From positions 2,560,001 through 2,624,000 of the forward strand of contig OY821645.1 of the NCBI GenBank assembly GCA_963682135.1: DNA of 64,000 nt, written 5' to 3'. Source of the DNA: Methanothrix sp. (GTDB taxonomy: Archaea; Halobacteriota; Methanosarcinia; Methanotrichales; Methanotrichaceae). The notes below the pieces were generated by a model that was not told the DNA's origin, did no database searches, and was given only the letters and a program-made list of their open reading frames with translations. This document shows positions 1,851-59,900 of this stretch, piece after piece. Position 1 is the first letter of the stretch, and each line of letters starts with the position of its first letter. Both the position numbers and the translations under genes were made by a program.

Positions 1851-2774
1851 CTAAACCAATCGATGCAGTGGATGCCCCTCTCCCGGAGCGATATCCAGGT
1901 CGCGCACCGCCTCGGCAATGAGAATGTCGGCCAACGCCGCCGCCGGAAAGATGATGTCCGCGCTCTCAATCGGCCCATACAGCAGGAAGTCGGCCCCCGC
2001 CAGGAGCTGCATGGCCCCTGCCGCCGCATCGCAGCATTTTCTGGCCGTCTTCTCCTTTTGGGAGAGCCAGCGCCAGGAGGATACGGCATTGTGAATGCCC
2101 GAGCCCACGGGCAGGCCCAGACGCGCCTTGGCAGCCACGCAAAAGCGCAGAGCCGACCCGGCGCCACTTCCCAGGGGCAGCACCGCGGGATCGATGAGAA
2201 GATTTCTTATTCCTATCTCTCCGGCTGCGGCCAGAAGGCCCTTCTCGCGCACATTTCCGCCCGTCTCCAGAATGGCCAGTGAGCCGTCCACGCCCGGCTG
2301 GGATGGATTGTAGGCCAGAATGATGGCCGAGTCGATCTCCGATCCCCGCAGGGCCTGCGCCTCCTTCTCCCCCGTTGCCAGACTGATGCTGTTGTAGATG
2401 GCCCGGTCGGCATAGCCCAGTTCAGAAACCAGGAGCGCGGCGGCAGAGCGTGTTGATGCATCCGCAGAATCTATGATGAAGGGGCCGCTCCAGACCTGTT
2501 CGGCAAAATCAAGATACCTTTCGAAAGCCCCGATGCTCCGGGCATAGAGGTGCAGCACACAGGGGCATCCTGTCTCCTCGGACAGCTCTGCCTGACGGGA
2601 TATCAGCCTCTCCGCCGCCGCGCGGTCAAAGATGCCTCTCTCCTCATCTGCTACAATCTTGTGCCCTTGATAAAAAATGGTGCCGCATAGAACCGAAGGC
2701 AACTGGCCGCACTGGCCCCCAAATTTCACGCCCGCGACGTTTACTATGGATTGATCTTTGCTGAATCGAAACAA
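1851..2774 (-). CDS. mtxH: MtrH-family methyltransferase (MtxH-like paralog)
   Basis: MFRFSKDQ...GGQCGQLPSVLCGTIFY, IYNSI, GLPVGSGIHN, ADFLLYGPIE and HPL C-terminus. Paired with an MtrA paralog and without other mtr subunits. Confidence 0.82.
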   Translation of the reverse strand: MFRFSKDQSIVNVAGVKFGGQCGQLPSVLCGTIFYQGHKIVADEERGIFDRAAAERLISRQAELSEETGCPCVLHLYARSIGAFERYLDFAEQVWSGPFIIDSADASTRSAAALLVSELGYADRAIYNSISLATGEKEAQALRGSEIDSAIILAYNPSQPGVDGSLAILETGGNVREKGLLAAAGEIGIRNLLIDPAVLPLGSGAGSALRFCVAAKARLGLPVGSGIHNAVSSWRWLSQKEKTARKCCDAAAGAMQLLAGADFLLYGPIESADIIFPAAALADILIAEAVRDLDIAPGEGHPLHRLV

Positions 2775-2777
2775 TTG

Positions 2778-3413
2778 TCATCCCTCTGCATTAGCCTTCG
2801 CCGTAATCTCTTCCACAACCAGCCAGGCCGATGTATCCATGACGACCCTGCCGCCAAAGGATAGGTCCCCCTGGCCAAATGCAATCTGCCGCGCGGCGGC
2901 CTTTCTTTTGATTACCTGGAAGGGCTTTTCGGGATAAGGCTCACAGAGGCGGCTATATCTGAATATCTGCTCTTCAATCTGCCCAATATCTTCCAGGCCG
3001 ATACAGTCCACCAGCTCCACCTGGCTCTGGAAGCGCGCGATGGCCTGCGCCGGAAGATTTTGAATGAATGGTATGGCACCACGCGAACCGATTATTCTGC
3101 CCTGCTCATCTATGCCATTTTTATGCAGCGCCAGAATAGTATTGCCGGGCAGATGGCCCTTCGACTCCACCCCGCAGAGGATAAGGAATCTGATATTGCA
3201 ATTGGATATCATATTGGCCACGATCTTCTCGACGCCCAGATTCTCAGTCTTGCACTGGCCGCAGATGGCAGCGCCCCTTGGGAAGATGGAACTGGCTAAG
3301 GTTACCACCGCTACACCGGCATTTGCATTGCCTACCTGATAGTCGCCGCGCACAGGCGGCCAGGGGTCCTCGTAGCCTGGTTTAGTGCTATTGCTCTCCT
3401 CTGCCATAATCAC
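2778..3413 (-). CDS. mtxA: MtrA-family corrinoid protein (MtxA-like, no C-terminal TM helix)
   Basis: [40 protein letters not shown] (His ligand), GAIPFIQN. Confidence 0.85.
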
Positions 3414-17525: not shown

Positions 17526-19204
17526 GCCTTTTCGAGGAATTATCCAAAGATCGAAGGGTCATTCTATATGCGGTGTTCGTGGCTTTGGCCATCATTTCCA
17601 TTGGCTTTTTCGGTTTGAAGTTCGGACTGGATCTGGAAGGAGGCTCATATCTGCAGCTGCAATTGCAGGGAGCAGAAGCACAAATCGATGTCTCGCCGGA
17701 AAAGATTCTGGAAATGCAGTTTAATGCTTCCTCTGTAGAGAAGCACGGACAGAGCTATGTGGTGACGGTGCCGGAAGTTGTCGATTCAGCATTTGCCGAT
17801 GATCTCGGCTACATGGGCTCGAAGATCGCAAAAGGAGATAACAGCACCAAAGTCACAATAGTAGCTGCACCTGAGACTATCGTTATCAATTACCTTAAGA
17901 AAAATCTGGATGCAGATGTCCAGCTTAATGTGGCAGTCGCACCCGTCCGCTATGAGATCCGGACTAATGTCACCCGAGAATCGCTAGATGCTCTCTTGGC
18001 TCCCGTGGGCGGACGAGTGCCCGCAGGCGAAGACGCATTTGTAATGGGTGTGTCCAAGGAGACTGTGGACGAGACTAAGAAGGTTTTAGACTCCAAGCTC
18101 AACCGACTGGGCCTTCAGGATATAAAGGTCAGAGTTGTCGATAATAAGTACATACTCATTGATCTGGCGGGAATGGATGTAGCCACTGCCCAGGAGGTAG
18201 TGGGCAAGCCCGGCAAGTTCGAGATAAGAATTCAGACCGAGAACAATGAGAGCATGCATGTGCTCTACGGAGATGCCGTGGAGACTGTGGATATCCCCCA
18301 GGGAGAACGCAATGGTGGATGGGGAGTTCCCTTTGTTCTCTCAGAAGAAGGGGCGATGACCTTCCAAAAGGCGGCAATTGATACAGGTGCCACCAAGAGG
18401 CCTGAGGATCATTACATATCCATGTATCTGGATAAGGATGAGATCTTTTCCGCACCACTTGCACCAGAGCTGGCAAGCAGTCTGCAAAAGGTTCCATCTC
18501 GAAGCATGCAGGCAACCGTTGGTGGAGGCGATGCTGGATCTACCAAGGCCAAGGAGCTTTACATTCACCTGCGTGAAGGCGCTCTGCCGGTTAACGTAGA
18601 GGTTGTCGGCTCAGGCCAGGTCTCTGCTGCTTTGGGAAGGCAGTTCAAGTTGCAGATGGTAATAGCTGGGCTGATTGCTCTCCTGGCCGTAGCGGGCATG
18701 ATTTTCTACCGCTACCGGGAGAGAAGAATTGTCCTGCCTATGGTTACCACCTCGTTCTCCGAGGTCGTGATGATGCTGGGTGTCTGGGCTGTTGCCGGAT
18801 GGCAGCTTGATCTGGCAAGCCTTGCCGGTATCATCATGGTGATAGGCACAGGCGTTGATCAGCTGGTCATCATCACCGATGAGCTAATGAAAGGCGGTGA
18901 AGGGGTGGCATCCTCTGTTGAGCGCAGCATCAAAGAGAGAGCTGCAGAGGCGGCTGAGAAGGCCGGGGTGGGCAAGATGGCCGCCACCAGCAGCAAGGTC
19001 TATTTGGCCCGGCTGTCCAGGGCTTTCCTCATCATCCTGGGAGCTGCGGCAACCACAGCTGTAGCCATGCTGCCATTGCTTGTCATGGGCTTCGGCTCGC
19101 TCACCGGATTTGCACTCATCATCATCCTGGGTGTGATTCTGGGCACGTTCATAGCGAGACCAGCTTACGGCAGGATCATCGGTCACATACTGGCCACGGA
19201 TTAG
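17522..19204 (+). CDS. secD: Protein translocase subunit SecD
   Basis: FGLDLEGG, LNRLGL, LREGALP and IGTGVDQLVIITDE. Confidence 0.93.
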   Translation: MSLFEELSKDRRVILYAVFVALAIISIGFFGLKFGLDLEGGSYLQLQLQGAEAQIDVSPEKILEMQFNASSVEKHGQSYVVTVPEVVDSAFADDLGYMGSKIAKGDNSTKVTIVAAPETIVINYLKKNLDADVQLNVAVAPVRYEIRTNVTRESLDALLAPVGGRVPAGEDAFVMGVSKETVDETKKVLDSKLNRLGLQDIKVRVVDNKYILIDLAGMDVATAQEVVGKPGKFEIRIQTENNESMHVLYGDAVETVDIPQGERNGGWGVPFVLSEEGAMTFQKAAIDTGATKRPEDHYISMYLDKDEIFSAPLAPELASSLQKVPSRSMQATVGGGDAGSTKAKELYIHLREGALPVNVEVVGSGQVSAALGRQFKLQMVIAGLIALLAVAGMIFYRYRERRIVLPMVTTSFSEVVMMLGVWAVAGWQLDLASLAGIIMVIGTGVDQLVIITDELMKGGEGVASSVERSIKERAAEAAEKAGVGKMAATSSKVYLARLSRAFLIILGAAATTAVAMLPLLVMGFGSLTGFALIIILGVILGTFIARPAYGRIIGHILATD

Positions 19205-19220
19205 ACGAGAGAAGAAAACG

Positions 19221-19255
19221 CCTGCAGGTCGAGCGGACCTGCAGGATATATTTTA
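19221..19255 (+). terminator. Hairpin plus T-rich tract after secD
   Basis: CCTGCAGGTC-gagcg-GACCTGCAGG forms a perfect 10-bp stem, followed by ATATATTTT. Confidence 0.55.
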
Positions 19256-19462
19256 TCGGTTCCTTGCTATTTTATGTGGGCAGATTGAACTGCAATTTTC
19301 CAAGTCTAAGATAACAGTGGCAAATGACCTCTACATTATTTCGACGCACTGTCTGACCAAGGATTTGCGCATCTCTAACTCAGAGGCAATATTTTCTGCG
19401 GGAATCCCATCGCCATGAAGCTTTAGAACTTTTTTAACTTGTAGGATTGCGAAGGGCGGATT

Positions 19463-19544
19463 TCGCGGACCGCGGGTCCGCGAGAGTTTCGACGAGAAGT
19501 CGAAACATCGGTAAGTCCCCATCCTTCAGGACGCGGTAGTTCAC
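19463..19544 (+). mobile_element. IS200/IS605-family right-end-like remnant with hairpins
   Basis: Two perfect hairpins (19463-19483, 19486-19506), then AAGTCCCCATCCTTCAGGACGCGGTAGTTCAC, resembling the ...CCTTCAGGgCGgGGTAGTTCAC right end of TnpB-carrying elements. Confidence 0.5.
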
Positions 19545-19547
19545 TTA

Positions 19548-20219
19548 CTATTTGCGATAGCCAATGCTGATGCGCCCCGATGAAGCGTCCTTCTCCAAAA
19601 CGCCGCCTTTCTTAGAGCTGCCTATCACAAAACTGGACCTGGAACTGCCTATTTGGGATGAGTTGGAGGACTGCTCGGCAAGGGTCTTCTCTTCAGTCTG
19701 CTGCGCTTTTTCCAGCATGGCCATTAGCTGAGATCTCTTCTCTCCCGGCGGAAAGACAGGTGGCGGTTTCCACCAAACGGATGGATCGAATTCATTATTA
19801 GGGTCGTCATTTTGCCTGGCATAGCCTTCTTCCACAAGGATCCTGTTTACGGGCGGCCAGACCGGGCGGTAATCCGAATCCATAAGATAAATGACACAGA
19901 TGAGCTGGCTCCAAACGTTGCGCGTGGTGTTGTTGTTGTCATTAATATCCAGATATACCATTTTGTTCTTGAGCAACGAAAGGGCATATTTTTGGGAGGC
20001 TTTGCCTTGGTCTGTTACGGTTGAGGGGGCCTGTATATCGGCCAGTTTGATGCTGTCGATGTCCTCTGTTCTCGCATCCGCTATCAGCATCTCTATGCCC
20101 AGTGAGTCGCCGCTGATGACGCTCACCACCCGTCCGACAGCCTCATCAGGCAGCCCGAAAGCAGGGGGCATGAAAGACAAAGCTGATAGCAAAACCAATA
20201 AGGCCAACTGACGCATCAT
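19548..20219 (-). CDS. Secreted thermonuclease (SNase)-fold protein, probably inactive
   Basis: Signal peptide and SNase pattern (VVSVISGDSL, IKLADIQAP, VNRILVEEGYA) with catalytic positions substituted. Confidence 0.7.
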   Translation of the reverse strand: MMRQLALLVLLSALSFMPPAFGLPDEAVGRVVSVISGDSLGIEMLIADARTEDIDSIKLADIQAPSTVTDQGKASQKYALSLLKNKMVYLDINDNNNTTRNVWSQLICVIYLMDSDYRPVWPPVNRILVEEGYARQNDDPNNEFDPSVWWKPPPVFPPGEKRSQLMAMLEKAQQTEEKTLAEQSSNSSQIGSSRSSFVIGSSKKGGVLEKDASSGRISIGYRK

Positions 20220-20336
20220 GATAATCCTTGATTGTCCTGCGGCTTTAAAATTTATAATGGTTCCCCTCGACATGACTGCCATTTTGCTTAAAGTCGATAG
20301 GCCTTCGTGCTGTGAGCCAGGGTCTTAGAGTGCATG

Positions 20337-20882
20337 CTAAAGCAGACTGTTCTTGCATTTCCCATTAAACGAACAGTGGAGGCATCTTTGTTTGTAGTTG
20401 TGCCCTCTCTTGGGACAGTCGTGTCCTATTGACCTTTTCATCTCGTCTACCGTTGCCAGCAAATAGGAGCGCAGGGTTTTATCGAAATTGATTCTATGCT
20501 GCACTCCATCGGAATAGACAATTATCCCGTAAGGTACTGACCGGCGGTAGTTCTCTTCCACCAGGTAGCAGTATGCCGCCAATTGCATTATGTGGTTTTT
20601 ATGGGGCTCCTTGGCCCGACCGCTCTTGATCTCCACGGGAATCAAGCTGCGGCCTTTGCCTTTTACTATGTAATCCGGCTTGCCGCTGATTCCCAGATTT
20701 TTGGAATACAGGGCCTTTCCCGGGCGATCCAGATCTGAGTAGATTACCTTTCCCTCGGGGATGCCATAAACCATTCGCATGTTTTTGGCTGAGGATGACT
20801 CTCTCTTTGACAGCAATTGGAAGGTAGCGGCCAAGATTATTAGAGATAAAACAAAGATTAGATATAAGTCCATAAAAGCCAT
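20337..20882 (-). CDS. Cas4-like PD-(D/E)xK nuclease, C-terminal part, with N-terminal TM helix
   Basis: GKPDY, PVEIKS, QLAAY and C-terminal CLHC-x5-C, with a hydrophobic N-terminus. Confidence 0.85.
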   Translation of the reverse strand: MAFMDLYLIFVLSLIILAATFQLLSKRESSSAKNMRMVYGIPEGKVIYSDLDRPGKALYSKNLGISGKPDYIVKGKGRSLIPVEIKSGRAKEPHKNHIMQLAAYCYLVEENYRRSVPYGIIVYSDGVQHRINFDKTLRSYLLATVDEMKRSIGHDCPKRGHNYKQRCLHCSFNGKCKNSLL

Positions 20883-21130
20883 CCTGCAATTAAAATAGCA
20901 GCAATCAGAGAGATGTAGCCCAGCAACCGGAATAAGTCGGCTGCTCTCTCCCTTCTATCCAGGAGTGTCAGCCTGCCCCCAGCTTTCTGATGCATATCGA
21001 TTCCTCTCTTCAGGCCGAATGACTGCGGCTCCACTCCCGTTCTCTTCAGGTACCAGGACACAGGGCAGTAGACATATTGTGATATCTCTGATGCCGATAT
21101 TGCCTTGTATCCGTTTTTGCGTTTTAGCAT
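20858..21130 (-). CDS. Cas4-like N-terminal fragment protein with C-terminal TM helix
   Basis: ISASEISQYVYCP...RGIDMH, the Cas4 N-terminal motif with the first Fe-S Cys, followed by a TM helix. Confidence 0.8.
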   Translation of the reverse strand: MLKRKNGYKAISASEISQYVYCPVSWYLKRTGVEPQSFGLKRGIDMHQKAGGRLTLLDRRERAADLFRLLGYISLIAAILIAGWLLWTYI

Positions 21131-21202
21131 AATGATTTTAACCAGAACCCGATTAGAGATAAAGGTATCATATTAATAGAAGCCCTTCTTTATTCCTATC
21201 AG

Positions 21203-22204
21203 ATGGCGGATGAATCACTGGGTTTGAAGGTTAGCCGAAAAAATGGCGAGAAGATTCGTAGGACTCTCATAGAGATGGGCCTCTTTGATCGCTGCCGCAA
21301 GATTTGCTCGGATGAATCCCATGTTTACCTGCCCGTCTTGGAGATTGACGAAAAGTCAGCGGCAAAGCTAGGCAGCATTGGGCAGTTTGAATTAGTGGAT
21401 TTTGGTTTCCTGCCGGAAGAGAGAATAATCAGCCCTGAGGATCTTCTGGGCTTTCGGCCCAGCTTCGAGGTGGTGGGCGACATTGCCATGGTGGAAGATC
21501 GTGATGCAGAGCGTGTGGCTGCTGCCCTCATGTCCACTTGCAAGAGCATAAAGACCGTCATTGCCCCCATCTCTGATGTGGAAGGAGAATTTCGCACCCG
21601 CCGCTTCCGGCATGTGGCCGGGGAGGCTCGCACCGTTACCCTTCACAAGGAGCATGGCCTGCGCTACCGGGTGGACCTGGAGGGGGCCTATTTCACTCCC
21701 CGCCTGGGCACGGAGAGGCTACGCATTGCCGGCCTGGTCTCGCCAGGTGAGGTCGTGCTGGATATGTTCGCAGGCGTGGGGCCATTTTCTCTGCTCCTGG
21801 CCAAAAAAGGGGCAAAAGTCATCGCCATGGACAAGAATCCTGTGGCTGTGAAATACCTGCGCGAAAATGCGCTTTTAAACAAAGTAAATGGCATCGAGAT
21901 TCTGGAAGGCGATGCAGCAGAGCTTGCTCTGCGCTACGAGAATCGGGCGGATCACGTTATTATGAACCTTCCACACAGCGCCTGCGAATTTCTCATTCCA
22001 GCTATGAGAGCGGCAAAGTCCCAAGGAATGGTCCATTATTACTGTATAGCACCAGATGATGATCTCTACAGGGATCTGGCTCTGATAAAAAAAGCGGCAG
22101 AGGAGATGGATCTCGGCGCGGAGGTGCTCTACAAAGAGATAGTGAGAAGCTATGCGCCGCACAGAAGCAATGTGGTCATTGACTTTCGGCTTTTTAAATC
22201 ATGA
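21203..22204 (+). CDS. trm5: tRNA (guanine37-N1)-methyltransferase, Trm5 family
   Basis: VGDIA, GEFRTR, YFTPRLGTER, DMFAGVGPF and IMNLP. Confidence 0.9.
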   Translation: MADESLGLKVSRKNGEKIRRTLIEMGLFDRCRKICSDESHVYLPVLEIDEKSAAKLGSIGQFELVDFGFLPEERIISPEDLLGFRPSFEVVGDIAMVEDRDAERVAAALMSTCKSIKTVIAPISDVEGEFRTRRFRHVAGEARTVTLHKEHGLRYRVDLEGAYFTPRLGTERLRIAGLVSPGEVVLDMFAGVGPFSLLLAKKGAKVIAMDKNPVAVKYLRENALLNKVNGIEILEGDAAELALRYENRADHVIMNLPHSACEFLIPAMRAAKSQGMVHYYCIAPDDDLYRDLALIKKAAEEMDLGAEVLYKEIVRSYAPHRSNVVIDFRLFKS

Positions 22205-22263
22205 GCAGCACTTTTTTAGGGGGAGCGGACACATTCATAGGTTTGAGCAAGAGGTGTTGTATA

Positions 22264-22755
22264 ATGAAAAAAGCAATGGCATTAATAGTGCTGCTATTCG
22301 TTGCCATGAGTATGGCTGATGCAGCTCAACAGGTAAGCCGTCCTGGTAATTCGATTGCATCAATGCAAAAGCTAAAGCTGGATGCGGCTACTATCGACAT
22401 CATTTTAATAAAGATCGCGCCGGCATCACCTGGAAACAGCGAGCCGGTAAATGTGGGTGTCAAGGTCGTATCCAGTTTGACAGGTCAGGATATTTGCGGA
22501 TTGGAGGCAACTAATTTCAACTTGGAGACTCTAACCGTGCCGCCGGGCGGTCCTGCCATAGTTATAAAAAATATCTATCCCACCTCGTCGGTTGCGATAA
22601 ACCAACCAGTAAGTTGCGATTATTGGCTGGATATGGTACCTACCTCATATCAGGGCAACCAATATACCTGGTTGACCGGAACGTATACCCTCAAATTGAA
22701 TTATATTGTAGATGGACAGCAGCTCGCCAGCAAGACGTTCAGCTTTAGAGTCTGA
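22264..22755 (+). CDS. Secreted hypothetical protein
   Basis: Signal peptide MKKAMALIVLLFVAMSMADA, GAGGTG SD, Ig-like C-terminus. Confidence 0.65.
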   Translation: MKKAMALIVLLFVAMSMADAAQQVSRPGNSIASMQKLKLDAATIDIILIKIAPASPGNSEPVNVGVKVVSSLTGQDICGLEATNFNLETLTVPPGGPAIVIKNIYPTSSVAINQPVSCDYWLDMVPTSYQGNQYTWLTGTYTLKLNYIVDGQQLASKTFSFRV

Positions 22756-39579: not shown

Positions 39580-41061
39580 CTAATACTTAAACGTCAGACT
39601 GCTATTTTGCATCGTGCTGATCTCGGATGCAATGAGGTCAGGCGGAGGATTGGTGATATTGGCTGTACCGTTGCCTGTCATCAATCGATTGTTGTCATTG
39701 ACATGGGACAATCCCAGCACGTGACCCACTTCGTGCGCCATTGTCCACACAGTTGCATACTGAGCAACGGCCGCACCAGGCTTTCCTGCGGGATAGGCTG
39801 CACATCCATTATAAGGCGGCACAGTGGATCTCACGAAGTAGACCACGATATCTTTGGAGCCTGCGTTATTGCGATTGGCAAATAGCTGATTTTGCTCCGC
39901 TGTGGTCGATCCCATCATGCAGCCACCCACGTCCAGATCATCCAGGGCGGGAAAGTTCAGATGCTCCGTGGTGCCGCGCTCCACGCGAATGCCGGACATC
40001 ATATAGACCTGCTGCATGTTGTCCACCATTAAATCCAGGTTTGCATTGGGATTGGTCAGTATCTTGATATGCACCCTTATGCCCTTTAAAGTCTCATGAG
40101 CATCGGTCGCCGGGCTCCAGTAAATTGAGCCGTGCTGGAAATGATTAAACCGACAAACACTGGCGGGCGTTGATGTCTCATCGGTGACGGGATAGCCAAG
40201 AGCGCTCTTTTCCCATCCCAGGCTGGACCATCTGTCACGAATGCGACCGTGAACCTCATGAGGACCGGTTTGTGGCGTCCAGTATATCGACCCGCCCTGG
40301 AAGTGATTGTAACGGCCTACTTTATCCGGCGTTATCGACTCGTCGGTTAGCGGATAGCCCAGGAAGCTCTTTTCCCATCCCATGCCGGCCCATTTGCCGC
40401 GGATGTCGCCATGAACCTCATGAGCACCGGTTTGTGGTGTCCAGTATATCGATCCGCCCTGGAAGTGGTTGTACCGGCCTACTTTATCCGGCGTTACCGA
40501 CTCGTCGGTTAGTGGATAGCCCAGGAAGCTCTTTTCCCATCCCAGGCTGGACCATTTGCCGCGGATGTCGCCATGAACCTCATGAGCACCGGTTTGTGGT
40601 GTCCAGTATATCGATCCGCCCTGGAAGTGGTTGTACCGGCCTACTTTATCTGGCGTTACCGACTCATCGGTCAGCGGATAGCCCAGGAAGCTCTTCTCCC
40701 ATCCCAGGCTGGACCATTTGCCGCGGATGTCGCCATGAACCTCATGAGCACCGGTTTGTGGTGTCCAGTATATCGATCCGCCCTGGAAGTGGTTGTACCG
40801 GCCTACTTTATCCGGCGTTACCGACTCATCGGTTAGCGGATAGCCCAGGAAGCTCTTCTCCCATCCCAGGCTGGACCATTTGCCCCGGATGTCGCCATGA
40901 ATCTCATGAGCCCCGGACTGAGGCGACCAGTAAATAGATCCACTTTTGTAGTGTCTATAAGCGCCTATTCCGTCCGGCGTTTTTAGCTCCGGGCCTGTCG
41001 GTGCGCCCAAAAATCCTGAAGCTCCACCGAGAGCTGCATATTTCTTATCGATTTCGGTCAT
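39580..41061 (-). CDS. LGFP-repeat protein with C-terminal metzincin zinc-protease domain
   Basis: About six 54-aa LGFP repeats (LGYPLTDE...FQGGSIYW), HEVGHVLGLSH and Met-turn RLM. No signal peptide. Confidence 0.88.
   Translation of the reverse strand: MTEIDKKYAALGGASGFLGAPTGPELKTPDGIGAYRHYKSGSIYWSPQSGAHEIHGDIRGKWSSLGWEKSFLGYPLTDESVTPDKVGRYNHFQGGSIYWTPQTGAHEVHGDIRGKWSSLGWEKSFLGYPLTDESVTPDKVGRYNHFQGGSIYWTPQTGAHEVHGDIRGKWSSLGWEKSFLGYPLTDESVTPDKVGRYNHFQGGSIYWTPQTGAHEVHGDIRGKWAGMGWEKSFLGYPLTDESITPDKVGRYNHFQGGSIYWTPQTGPHEVHGRIRDRWSSLGWEKSALGYPVTDETSTPASVCRFNHFQHGSIYWSPATDAHETLKGIRVHIKILTNPNANLDLMVDNMQQVYMMSGIRVERGTTEHLNFPALDDLDVGGCMMGSTTAEQNQLFANRNNAGSKDIVVYFVRSTVPPYNGCAAYPAGKPGAAVAQYATVWTMAHEVGHVLGLSHVNDNNRLMTGNGTANITNPPPDLIASEISTMQNSSLTFKY
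40250..40910 (-). repeat. 162-bp near-identical tandem repeats encoding LGFP units
   Basis: About four nearly identical units, e.g. the GGATAGCCCAGGAAGCTCTT block recurring every 162 nt. Confidence 0.9.
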
Positions 41062-56980: not shown

Positions 56981-59900
56981 ATGACTGGACTGACCTGGCT
57001 TCATCTTTCGGACTGGCATCAAGCAGAACGCAAATTCAATCGCAAAGTTGTTTGCGATGCCCTCATTAAGGATATAAAAGCGAGAGAAAAAATAAATCCT
57101 CATTTGAGCAAAATAGATTTCATCATATTTAGTGGGGATGCGGCCAAAAGTGGGCAGCCAGATGAGTATACGAAGGCAACAGAGGATTTATTCAACCCTC
57201 TTTTAGAAGCCTGTCAATTGGGAAAAGACCGGCTATTTATTGTCCCTGGCAATCATGATTTGGATCGTGATCTAATTCCTGCTGCACTTTCGAAGCCTTT
57301 GACATCCAATGAAGAAGTTGAACCTTGGTGGAGCGAGGATAAGAAAAGAGTGCAGTTATCGCAACCGTTCCAGGCTTTTAATCGCTTTCTGACTGATTGC
57401 ACAGGCCAAAAGCCTCCGGAATATTGCAGTGTAGGCTCATTTGAGATCGACGGTAGAAAAATAGATTTGCTAGGTATCAATTCTGCATGGATGTGTGCTC
57501 GCCATAAAGACGAGGCAGGGGAATTCAGTGACCAGGGATATCTTTGCATTGGCGAATCGCAGATCTACGATTCTCTTGAGAATATCTCGGACTCGGATAT
57601 CAAAATTGCCGTGATTCACCATCCTCTCGACTGGTTGGCTCCATTTGATTCAAGTCGAAATGAGGTGCATTTAAAACGAAAATGTAATTTCATACTCCAT
57701 GGTCATGCCCATAAGCCGGGAGCATCCGCAGTCCGAGACAACTTTGGCTATTATATCACAATTCCTGCAGGGGCTTGCTATGACAGAAGCATGTCCGCAA
57801 ATTCCGACTACACCTATTCATACAATTATGTCCATTTGGATTTTGATACAGACAAAGGCATTGTCTTTCCGCGTCGCTGGAGTGATTTGAACCGGGTATG
57901 GCGAAAAGACGATGAAACGTTTTCCACCACGAATGGCGAATTTCGTTTTTCGATTTCCGGATCTGAAAAAGCACCCATTCCCCATCAAATCCCACCGCCT
58001 CCGCGTGACTTCAAAGGCCGCGAGGATGAAATCTGCGACATCCTCTCCAACTTTGAAAAAGGTGCCACCATCACCGGCCTGCGTGGCATGGGCGGCGTGG
58101 GCAAGACTGCTCTGGCCCTGGTCCTGGCAGACAAGCTTAAGAGCCAATCTCCCGATGGCCAGATCTTCGTAGACATGCGGGGAACGAGTAACAATCCGGA
58201 TTTGCCTCCAATGGTGCCGGAAGATGCCATGGCTCAGATCATCCGGGCCTACAATCCTGCGGATCGCTTGCCGAGAAACGCAAATGAACTGCGTGATCTG
58301 TTTTTCTCCATTCTGGATGGCAAACGTGTTCTTCTGCTGCTGGATAATGCCGCCGACAACGGGCAGGTGGAGCCTCTGCTGCCTCCCGTAGGCTGCACTG
58401 TCCTAATCACATCGAGAATAAAATTCGCCTTGCCAGGTTTAGCGGAAAAAGATCTGGACATCTTGCCATTGGATAAAGCATGCGAGCTTCTTCTTCATAT
58501 TGCCCCGCGTATTGGCAACTGGGCAGAGGAACTAGCGAAACTGTGTGGCCGCCTTCCTCTTGCTCTTCGCAATGCAGGCAGTGCGCTAGCTAAAAAACGG
58601 GATTTGAGCGTTCCCGAATATCAAAAACGTCTGAAGGATAAGATGGAACGGCTTAAATTGGTAGAAGGGTCCTTCAGCCTCAGCTACGATCTTCTCACTC
58701 CTGGACGAAAAAAGCAATGGCGGCGTTTGTCGGTCTTTCCGGAAGACTTTGATCGCAATGCTGCGACTGCTGTTCTAAAGATGGCTCCAGAACCGTCGGC
58801 TGAGGCTCTGAGCGATTTGGTGCGATGGAGCTTGGTGGACTATATTGAAGCACCAGATTCCGAAGAGGGCCGATACAAGCTACATGATTTGGCTCGCCTT
58901 TTCGCAGAATCATGTCTCAAAGGTGATGAACTTGCGGATGCCCAGCAGAAACATGCCATGTATTACTCGAAAGTTCTTTATAAATCTGAAAAATTCTACC
59001 AAAAAGGTGGAACTAATGTCTTAGTAGGTCTCAAGCTTTTCGATAGTGAATGGGCCAATATCAAAGTTGGGCAAGCCTGGGTAAAGGAGAAGATTCAAGG
59101 ATTGAATAAATTGAATGAGAGTGATTTGAAATCAGTCTCGCAATTGGCTCGGTCTTATGCAGGTGCAGGAGGTAATGTATTGGATTTGCGCCTGCATCAA
59201 CGGGATAAAATTGGCTGGCTTGAAACAGGTCTAAAAGCAGCAAGAATAATGAGAGATCAAGGCAATGAAGGAGTTCATTTGGGCAACCTGGGGCTAGCCT
59301 ACATCTACCTGGGCGAAACTCGCAAGTCAATTGAATATCTAGAAAGGGCATTGAATATCTCCCGAAAGGTTGGAAACAGAAGTGGCGAATGCGTTCACTT
59401 GGGCAATCTGGGCCATGCCTATGTTGGGCTAGGCGAGACTGGCAAGGCAGTCGAGTACTACAATAAGGCTCTAGCCATCTCCCAAGAGATCGGCGACAGA
59501 AGGAATAAGGGACTCGTTCTGGGCGCCTTGGGATCAGCCTACTATGCTCTGGGTGAGACTCGCAAGGCGATCGTTTACTTTGAAAAGGCTCTAGGTATCA
59601 CCAAAGAAATCGGTGACATTGAGAATAAAGGAGTCTGGCTGGGCAACCTGGGCAATGCCTACGCCGACCTGGGCGAGACTCGCAAGGCCATCGAATATCA
59701 CGAGCAGGCACTGGCCATCGACCGCGAGATTGGCGACAGGAGGGGCGAAGGAGCCGACCTGGGCAACCTGGGCCTGGCCTACGCTGACCTGGGCGAGACT
59801 TGCAAGGCCATCGAGTACCACGAACAGGCACTGGCCATCACTCGCGAGATCGAAGACAAACAGAACGAAGGAGAATTTCTCTGTAATTTGGGCAAAGCTT

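Follow-up and report, generated by a model that had tools for sequence, protein, structure and literature searches.

A split Cas4-family gene in a Methanothrix genome

The window analysed here is a 64-kb stretch of DNA (C1:2560001-2624000) from the complete 3.04-Mb genome of a Methanothrix archaeon. On its minus strand, at C1:2580337-2581130 of the genome, two overlapping open reading frames (ORFs), ORF1 and ORF2, carry between them the motifs of a single Cas4-family nuclease, with the four Cas4-type cysteines spread over the two chains, one in ORF1 and three in ORF2. We consider it likely, with a probability of roughly 0.78, that ORF1 and ORF2 encode a solo (CRISPR-independent) Cas4-family iron-sulfur (Fe-S) nuclease of two subunits, tethered to the membrane, facing the cytoplasm and functioning as an obligate heterodimer, for which the two ORFs would yield separate translation products. 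An earlier note, made from the sequence of this region alone, had already described two membrane-anchored half-genes of a CRISPR-less Cas4-like protein with its Fe-S ligands divided one plus three, a picture that gene conservation, selection, invariant residues and complex prediction support. What is new is the architecture and the subunit structure; Cas4 chemistry and the Cas4 fold are known.

The features of the pair are as follows (window positions; ORF2 residues numbered from the ATG at 20873).

20858..21130, minus strand: ORF1, 90 amino acids (aa) plus stop, with the TAA at 20860-20858
Cas4 N-terminal segment of ORF1, ISASEISQYVYC, minus strand, with Cys22 at 21065-21067
20990-20992, minus strand: His47 of the ORF1 G-x3-H motif
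20870..20926, minus strand: transmembrane helix 1 (TM1), ORF1 residues 69-87 (LLGYISLIAAILIAGWLLW), from hydrophobicity
20858..20873, minus strand: ORF1/ORF2 overlap of 16 nucleotides (nt), with the ORF2 ATG at 20873-20871 within the end of ORF1
20882..20885, minus strand: AGGA, a weak Shine-Dalgarno-like motif 8 nt upstream of the ATG at 20873
20337..20873, minus strand: ORF2, 178 aa plus stop from the ATG at 20873 (181 aa from the ATG at 20882)
20811..20867, minus strand: transmembrane helix 2 (TM2), ORF2 residues 3-21 (LYLIFVLSLIILAATFQLL), from hydrophobicity
ORF2 catalytic residues, minus strand: D67 at 20673-20675, E81 at 20631-20633, K83 at 20625-20627, Q97 and Y101
ORF2 cysteines, minus strand: Cys164 at 20382-20384, Cys167 at 20373-20375 and Cys173 at 20355-20357

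Both ORFs lie where the earlier note had placed them and each has one membrane helix. In ORF1 the Cys/His segment precedes a C-terminal helix, a tail-anchored layout, and in ORF2 an N-terminal helix precedes the Cas4/RecB-type core. TM1 and TM2 are the strongest 19-residue hydrophobic stretches of their respective ORFs (Kyte-Doolittle means of 2.18 and 2.48). The few residues between the two helices are uncharged, and stretches rich in lysine and arginine flank them: five of these residues occur among the 22 that precede TM1 (ORF1 45-66), and the segment KRESSSAKNMRM directly follows TM2, ORF2 having none in residues 1-22 and four in residues 23-40. By the established positive-inside rule, these flanks suggest a cytoplasmic location of both soluble parts.

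ORF2 is in the -1 frame relative to ORF1. The earlier note was right to take the ATG at 20873, behind the AGGA motif, as the start, which is the conserved one, although the length of 181 aa that it gave counts from the alternative ATG at 20882, whose A is also the last A of AGGA. In most loci of the genus, AGGA, GGA or GGTG precedes the ORF2 start by 6-10 nt. An overlap of 16 nt, in which ORF2 starts before ORF1 has ended, would fit coupled translation of two products. In the arrangement that we propose, the tail-anchored ORF1 product would contribute the N-terminal helix bearing Cys22, the first Fe-S ligand, together with His47, and end in TM1, whereas the ORF2 product would start with TM2 and supply the RecB-type core (D67, E81-x-K83, Q97-x3-Y101) and the remaining three cysteines. 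TM1 and TM2 would pair into a hairpin, leaving just a handful of residues on the outside of the cell, and the soluble parts would re-form the Cas4 fold in the cytoplasm, with the cluster site, and probably the metal site as well, built from both chains.

The two halves match complementary parts of Cas4

ORF2 matched the Cas4 family TIGR00372 with 83.5 bits (curated cut-off 65) over model positions 61-179 of 180, and PF01930 with 42.9 bits (curated cut-off 22.7). ORF1 matched the missing beginning, although weakly: positions 1-44 only of TIGR00372 (13.8 bits, E 0.039, below the cut-off) and positions 4-56 of the PADLOC Cas4 model PDLC01447 (E 2.6e-5); its alignment to the Cas4 structure 4r5q_A (E 0.24) is not significant alone. 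A relative with both halves in one ORF, L017, covers positions 4-159 of PDLC01447 in one stretch. Among its defence-system models, PADLOC returned only Cas4 and DruK-type nuclease models.

Alignments of split homologues from several families showed Cys22 and His47 of ORF1 to be invariant in 15 of 15 rows, and D67, E81, K83, Q97, Y101, C164, C167 and C173 of ORF2 in 17 of 17. The Cas4 motifs named in the earlier note are thus present and conserved well beyond this genome. The pair has the traits of the Cas4 family, namely the D, E-x-K and Q-x3-Y motifs and four cysteines, one N-terminal and three C-terminal, but it departs from the Cas4 norm of a whole domain on one polypeptide, being encoded by two ORFs in different frames. 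His47 aligns with the conserved histidine that follows the Cys helix of Cas4 and would be the equivalent of His62 of SSO0001, a residue reported as a metal ligand (PMC13621843).

The split is conserved and under purifying selection

In all 13 loci of the genus (g1) that could be judged, that of the window's own genome and those of 12 relatives, ORF1 lies directly upstream and ORF2 follows in the -1 frame; a fourteenth candidate, L011, is a contig-end fragment that was not judgeable and was left out of this count. The two-gene conservation that the earlier note proposed to look for holds at all of these loci, at identities ranging from 50 to 100% for ORF1 and from 58 to 100% for ORF2. Where matches from the genus bear a name, it is Methanothrix or Methanosaeta. 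ORF1 has exactly 90 aa in 12 of 12 complete copies, the ATG that gives the 16-nt overlap is present in 12 of the 13 loci, and ATG or GTG occupies the 25-nt position in 11. Over 45 pairs from 10 genomes of the genus, with the overlap codons excluded, the median ratio of nonsynonymous to synonymous substitution rates (dN/dS) was 0.23 for ORF1 (median dS 0.73; five pairs with saturated dS dropped from the ratio) and 0.16 for ORF2 (median dS 1.04), values that indicate purifying selection on both halves.

The stretch 20858-20882, at which the earlier note had suggested looking for an indel, showed 0 differences and 0 gaps in contigs of three sequencing runs from two studies (X1, X3 and X4), one of which may be the source of the assembly itself. 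A relative from a wetland metagenome (X6) carries an in-frame 9-nt insertion in TM2, which fits the 181-aa variants of relatives. A look for RNA sequencing runs that contain the region listed none.

It is hardly credible, in view of these data, that the split is a sequencing or assembly indel or a recent pseudogene created by a fresh frameshift mutation: it persists in all 13 loci at dS values of ~0.7-1.0 with dN/dS of 0.16-0.23 in both halves, the length of ORF1 does not vary among complete copies, and the cysteines and catalytic residues are invariant. What such an explanation has in its favour is that the gene is missing from some genomes of the genus and that one copy, L018, looks damaged. 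Sequencing error as such was rejected on the conserved split, the purifying selection and the indel-free contigs.

The damaged copy (G017:C5:144863-149379) has lost the ATG of the 16-nt overlap, so that only a GTG at the 25-nt position is left. Around ORF2 residue 150 its frame is broken a second time. Either the copy is decaying or it was misassembled.

Junctions differ between lineages

Over all lineages, the genus included, 30 loci could be judged, of which 24 are split, five are fused and one (L035) is unclear, its N-terminal half not having been found and its match containing one stop. ORF1 adjoins ORF2 in 24 of the 25 non-fused loci. Every break falls in the short loop between TM1 and TM2, and the way in which the two ORFs meet there varies: the 16-nt overlap of g1 is replaced by an 8-nt overlap, ATGAATGA, with a +1 frame relation in all six loci of the sister genus g10, by 4-nt overlaps in L022 (GTGA), L024 (ATGA) and L028 (TTGA), and by a 13-nt overlap in L034. 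A start codon is found at the junction in 23 of the 24 split loci. L023 (G226:C1:2174983-2178507) is a split copy in which the GTG start of its close relative L022 is altered; its junction has no ATG, GTG or TTG, and the next ATG lies inside TM2.

A programmed -1 ribosomal frameshift in the overlap, which would make one two-helix Cas4 and turn the split into a decoding device, might be suspected from the -1 frame being open across the end of ORF1 in all genus loci, from the same frame relation being common to several unrelated lineages, and from the occurrence elsewhere of single-chain forms of the same protein. Nonetheless we regard it as very improbable. No slippery heptamer is kept in the overlap, where TGG CTT TTA TGG has become CTG ATT CTA TGG in L007 and CGG TTT CTA TGG in L010; g10 would require a shift of +1 over its 8-nt overlap; a start codon is nearly always at hand; and the -1 relation is frequent because stop/start overlaps of 4, 13 and 16 nt produce it. 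We rejected the programmed frameshift since a conserved slippery site is lacking and the frame relation differs between genera. A scan of positions 19000-22500 against Rfam gave no match at E <= 1.

Fused relatives carry a membrane hairpin inside the Cas4 fold

In the five fused loci a single ORF of 265-301 aa contains, in this order, the Cys/His segment, TM1, a loop, TM2 and the core. One is from the sister family f2 (L017), two are from a genus whose named matches are Methanofollis (L020 and L021), one is the single ORF L025, and one is from a metagenome-assembled genome (MAG) of Dehalococcoidales (L013). The split loci checked on DNA are all archaeal, and the only bacterial locus seen, L013, is fused. 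In a draw of 301 genomes from the phylum, 16 had a match at E <= 1e-15 to a fused query. The earlier note held that a fused ORF in close relatives would speak against a genuine split; none of the 13 genus loci is fused, and fusion does occur in other families (L017, L013, L020, L021, L025), where it leaves the split in this genus standing. Fused relatives show both forms to be kept, with a Cas4 containing an internal two-helix membrane hairpin as the ancestral or alternative state.

In a tree of the core (IQ-TREE, LG+G4, 32 rows), one clade of fused and one of split forms, each with support 100, are sisters (support 89). They fall within the Methanofollis-like group, another short form lying outside, and from this placement fission or fusion must have taken place more than once within this group. 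We propose that a single-chain two-helix Cas4 was split long ago by gene fission within its hairpin loop and that the split could be kept because two membrane helices can stay paired without a covalent link. The suggestion of the earlier note that pairing of the membrane helices activates the enzyme found no support: the helices are permanently joined in the fused forms, which suggests that their pairing is constitutive.

Structure and complex predictions

The Cas4 fold was examined on the fused relative L017 rather than on the window's own chains. An AlphaFold2 model of L017 from a 26-row alignment, with a mean predicted local distance difference test score (pLDDT) of 89.3 and a predicted template modelling score (pTM) of 0.83, has two long helices, 46-91 and 95-126, that form a hairpin inserted in a Cas4-like fold. 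Foldseek against the Protein Data Bank (PDB) gave 24 matches at E <= 0.001, the top one being the type I-C Cas4 8d3l_I (E 5.9e-8, template modelling scores 0.57/0.70), followed by Cas4-Cas1 fusions, Dna2 and the Argonaute-associated Cas4-like ACE1, with SSO0001, AdnAB, MGME1 and Exo5 among the further matches.

As the earlier note had proposed, we co-folded the two chains. Predictions for ORF2, a 4Fe-4S cluster and ORF1 scored 0.80, 0.81 and 0.81, whereas the best of three controls scored 0.02; when the tool was calibrated, 116 of 157 solved complexes and 2 of 215 mismatched pairs reached this mark. At least 93% of the contacts agreed between runs and the pLDDT of the partner was at least 79. 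The predicted interface runs helix to helix between ORF1 60-85 and ORF2 4-29, and lays ORF1 10-30, with Cys22, on ORF2 93-101, 138-149 and 163-175, the last with Cys167 and Cys173, at low expected error. Pairing is thus predicted, with controls passed; such a pass shows likeness and does not amount to binding.

Genomic context

The window contains no cas1, no cas2 and no CRISPR-like array, as the earlier note had stated. In the genome, cas1 matches lie at C1:73438 and C1:2297916, and cas2 matches at C1:74476, 2296462, 2297452 and 2948968, so that the pair is ~282 kb from the nearest cas1 (C1:2297916) and cas2 (C1:2297452). On account of this distance we class the pair with the solo-Cas4 genes as Hudaiberdiev et al. 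2017 (PMC5704561) defined them, namely Cas4-family genes located outside CRISPR-cas loci and recognised mobile elements. The genome has five Cas4-family matches: one in a single open frame together with a cas1 match, one adjoining the second cas1, a 238-aa gene, a partial copy of the latter, and the pair.

The neighbours of the pair in the window are a divergent Trm5/TYW2 gene, SecD, DUF1699 genes and a same-strand gene of 244 aa; the neighbourhood with Trm5/TYW2 and the 244-aa gene holds within the genus only. The Pfam names of the neighbours of L013 and L020 are housekeeping-like.

What weighs against a heterodimeric nuclease

A number of observations count against reading the pair as a two-subunit nuclease. 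The Shine-Dalgarno-like AGGA is weak evidence, because it is short and coincides with ORF1 codons, encoding the conserved Gly-Trp. In the complex model, Cys164 is not among the named interface residues; the pass of the model may stem from resemblance to solved single-chain Cas4 structures, of whose fold the two chains are halves; and our own alignments and the riding ligand differ from the conditions of the tool's calibration. Clustering of the flanking ORFs (~1.5 kb on each side) at the 29 loci in which both halves were matched revealed no neighbour shared between genera, and gene context gives no indication of a role. Finally, strong matches occur in six of 10 g1 genomes of at least 90% completeness, and in two genomes (G018 and G008) the 244-aa gene abuts Trm5 with the pair missing. 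As it is patchy in the genus and missing from this intact site, the pair is accessory and dispensable.

Two further objections bear on ORF1 itself. By itself ORF1 falls below every curated Cas4 cut-off, and a cluster assembled in trans need not be required for catalysis, since cysteine mutants of the solo-Cas4 of Methanosarcina mazei are reported to have lost the cluster and kept nuclease activity (PMC12501428). Both would suit a scheme in which ORF2 alone is a membrane-anchored nuclease and ORF1 a separate small membrane protein, be it a regulator, an inhibitor or a chaperone. We find this scheme improbable: ORF1 matches the segment 4-56 of the Cas4 model that the fused relative covers contiguously with the rest, its Cys22 and His47 are invariant, it stands beside ORF2 in nearly all non-fused loci, and the complex model lays its residues 10-30 against the ORF2 core.

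As regards the role of the proposed heterodimeric nuclease, its localisation and patchy distribution lead us to a guess, weakly held, that on the inner side of the membrane it might process DNA ends or degrade them in some accessory defence-like or repair function.

Relationship to known nucleases

The pair resembles the Cas4 proteins of CRISPR adaptation (8D3L chain I, SSO0001 4IC1, Pcal_0546 4R5Q) in its predicted fold, its D/ExK/QxxxY motifs, its one-plus-three cysteines and the histidine after the Cys helix; a profile of the fused relatives matched 8d3l_I with E 9e-7, and the L017 model matched 4ic1_D with a Foldseek E of 2.5e-5. It differs from them in adjoining neither cas1 nor cas2 nor an array, and in having a two-helix membrane hairpin of ~70 residues between the Cys/His segment and the core, cut here into two polypeptides.

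A characterised counterpart in kind, from a methanogen of the same class, is the solo-Cas4 of M. mazei Go1 (Rentz et al. 2025, PMC12501428), which is likewise encoded away from CRISPR loci, with four cysteines for a 4Fe-4S cluster and metal-dependent DNA nuclease activity. Unlike the pair, it is described there as a soluble, single-chain protein assembling into an oligomer of 318 kDa. Matches of relatives from the M. mazei family (f3) to ORF2 reach no more than E 1e-5 to 1e-7, and the genome of the window has, besides the pair, its own soluble 238-aa Cas4-family gene elsewhere.

Single-chain two-helix relatives (L017, L020, L021, L025, L013, P0099, P0102 and P0115) have the same order of parts and are 38-48% identical to the halves, but they are encoded by one ORF of 265-301 aa with no separate start and stop in the hairpin loop. 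In iron-staple nucleases of the AddB/RecB type, the cluster is held by one cysteine before and three after the core, and ties down the N-terminal helix. The pair has the same one-plus-three pattern, and AddAB (3U44) and AdnAB (6PPR) are among the fold matches of L017; these are, however, soluble domains of large helicase-nucleases whose staple lies within one chain, whereas the staple of the pair would link two.

Full-text literature searches on Cas4, solo-Cas4 and membrane nucleases listed no paper that describes a Cas4 embedded in the membrane or split in two. In the main text of Hudaiberdiev et al. 2017 (PMC5704561), the word 'split' occurs 0 times and 'membrane' once, in a gene-name legend. 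Ever since solo-Cas4 proteins were first catalogued, in 2017, their role has been an open question, and the sole characterised enzyme from a methanogen is a soluble oligomer. The age of the split, its conservation and its recurrence in other lineages point to a membrane-bound branch of Cas4 that has yet to be described. A branch of Cas4 built into the membrane offers both a clue from localisation and a clean system for testing. Having been cut in two repeatedly within its membrane hairpin, this branch is also a natural experiment, the split form of which would build its Fe-S site, and probably its metal site, from two chains joined by two membrane helices.

There is a consequence for annotation as well. 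At E <= 0.001, small proteins similar to ORF1, which are called in many public assemblies, fall into 227 clusters; of the 120 clusters that were listed, most have 83-136 aa. Among the matches listed, named NCBI-derived records call the small half 'hypothetical protein' and many JGI records call it Cas4; the larger half is annotated as a complete Cas4.

A wider set of putatively membrane-associated relatives

A profile built from eight fused forms and searched against 1.84 billion representatives (of 50%-identity clusters) retrieved 3386 proteins at E <= 0.001, 1188 at E <= 1e-10 and 222 at E <= 1e-30, the looser sets, above E 1e-30, surely containing ordinary Cas4. After filtering, 134 of the 147 top representatives were kept: 64 contain the C-half only (~150-200 aa with a hydrophobic N-terminus), 26 appear to have ~2 membrane helices, 31 ~4 and 13 ~8-10, classes that are crude, being assigned from how far the GKPD motif lies from the N-terminus and known from protein sequence alone. 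The protein atlas labels of these representatives are automatic and their taxa rough (for example Thermoplasmatota and Planctomycetota), and serve as leads only.

A quick tree of 152 rows (the 134 representatives and 18 rows derived from the loci) requires at least 12 changes between split and unsplit states, compared with 51.0 on average and no fewer than 43 in 200 label shuffles. The count drops to 11, 8 and 3 when branches with support in the Shimodaira-Hasegawa-like approximate likelihood ratio test (SH-aLRT) under 80, 90 and 95, respectively, are collapsed.

These forms invite a broader idea, namely that there is a large undescribed class of integral-membrane Cas4 proteins with two, ~4 or ~8-10 helices inside the fold, the membrane part of which serves, rather than as a passive anchor, as a sensor or gate of a membrane-triggered defence or DNA-entry nuclease. 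With the helix carrying Cys22 and His47 tied to the core only via TM1-TM2 packing, a change in the membrane, such as virus entry, depolarisation or the action of a partner channel, would switch the assembly of the active site on or off. We hold this to be unlikely, if worth keeping in mind. In a Pfam scan of 16 of the forms with 4 and 8-10 helices, only sub-threshold matches (DUF2339 and FtsK_4TM among them) were found beyond the nuclease domain, and no ComEC-like competence domain was seen.

Further observations

Just downstream of the pair, the 244-aa ORF (window 19548-20282, minus strand) has a hydrophobic N-terminus and matches the staphylococcal-nuclease family PF00565 weakly and below threshold (E 0.041, 14.8 bits, cut-off 21); it lies downstream of the pair in 11 of the 13 genus loci.

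Elsewhere in the genome, at G000:C1:72775-74310 (L038/L015), Cas4 (PF01930, E 1.5e-21) and Cas1 (PF01867, E 2.1e-91) share one 605-aa open frame, an arrangement pointing to a fusion of the two genes in one of the genome's two adaptation modules. The soluble 238-aa Cas4-family gene occupies positions 1141-1857 of L042 (G000:C1:534581-537901), with matches to PF12705 (E 3.5e-8) and PF01930 (E 1e-5). A second copy of its last ~140 codons follows at 2615-3145, and between both copies lie a PemK/MazF-like toxin gene (2065-2436, PF02452, E 1.5e-11) and a 76-aa ORF; the locus looks like a toxin-antitoxin cassette inserted with partial duplication of its target.

In the Methanofollis-like loci L020 (1076-1501 and 2334-2744) and L021-L023, an RNase H gene ends where Cas4 starts and a TrmO-like gene starts where Cas4 ends, and this order, found in four of four such loci, may reflect an operon. 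In L013 (5007-6928) the fused homologue is followed by an unassigned 295-aa ORF and then by a reverse-transcriptase gene (RVT_1, E 2.5e-25), a single instance. Finally, the window has two tandem repeats, at 40177-40941 (162 nt, 4.7 copies, 92% matches) and at 59400-59852 (120 nt, 3.8 copies, 71% matches), both of which probably lie inside coding sequence.

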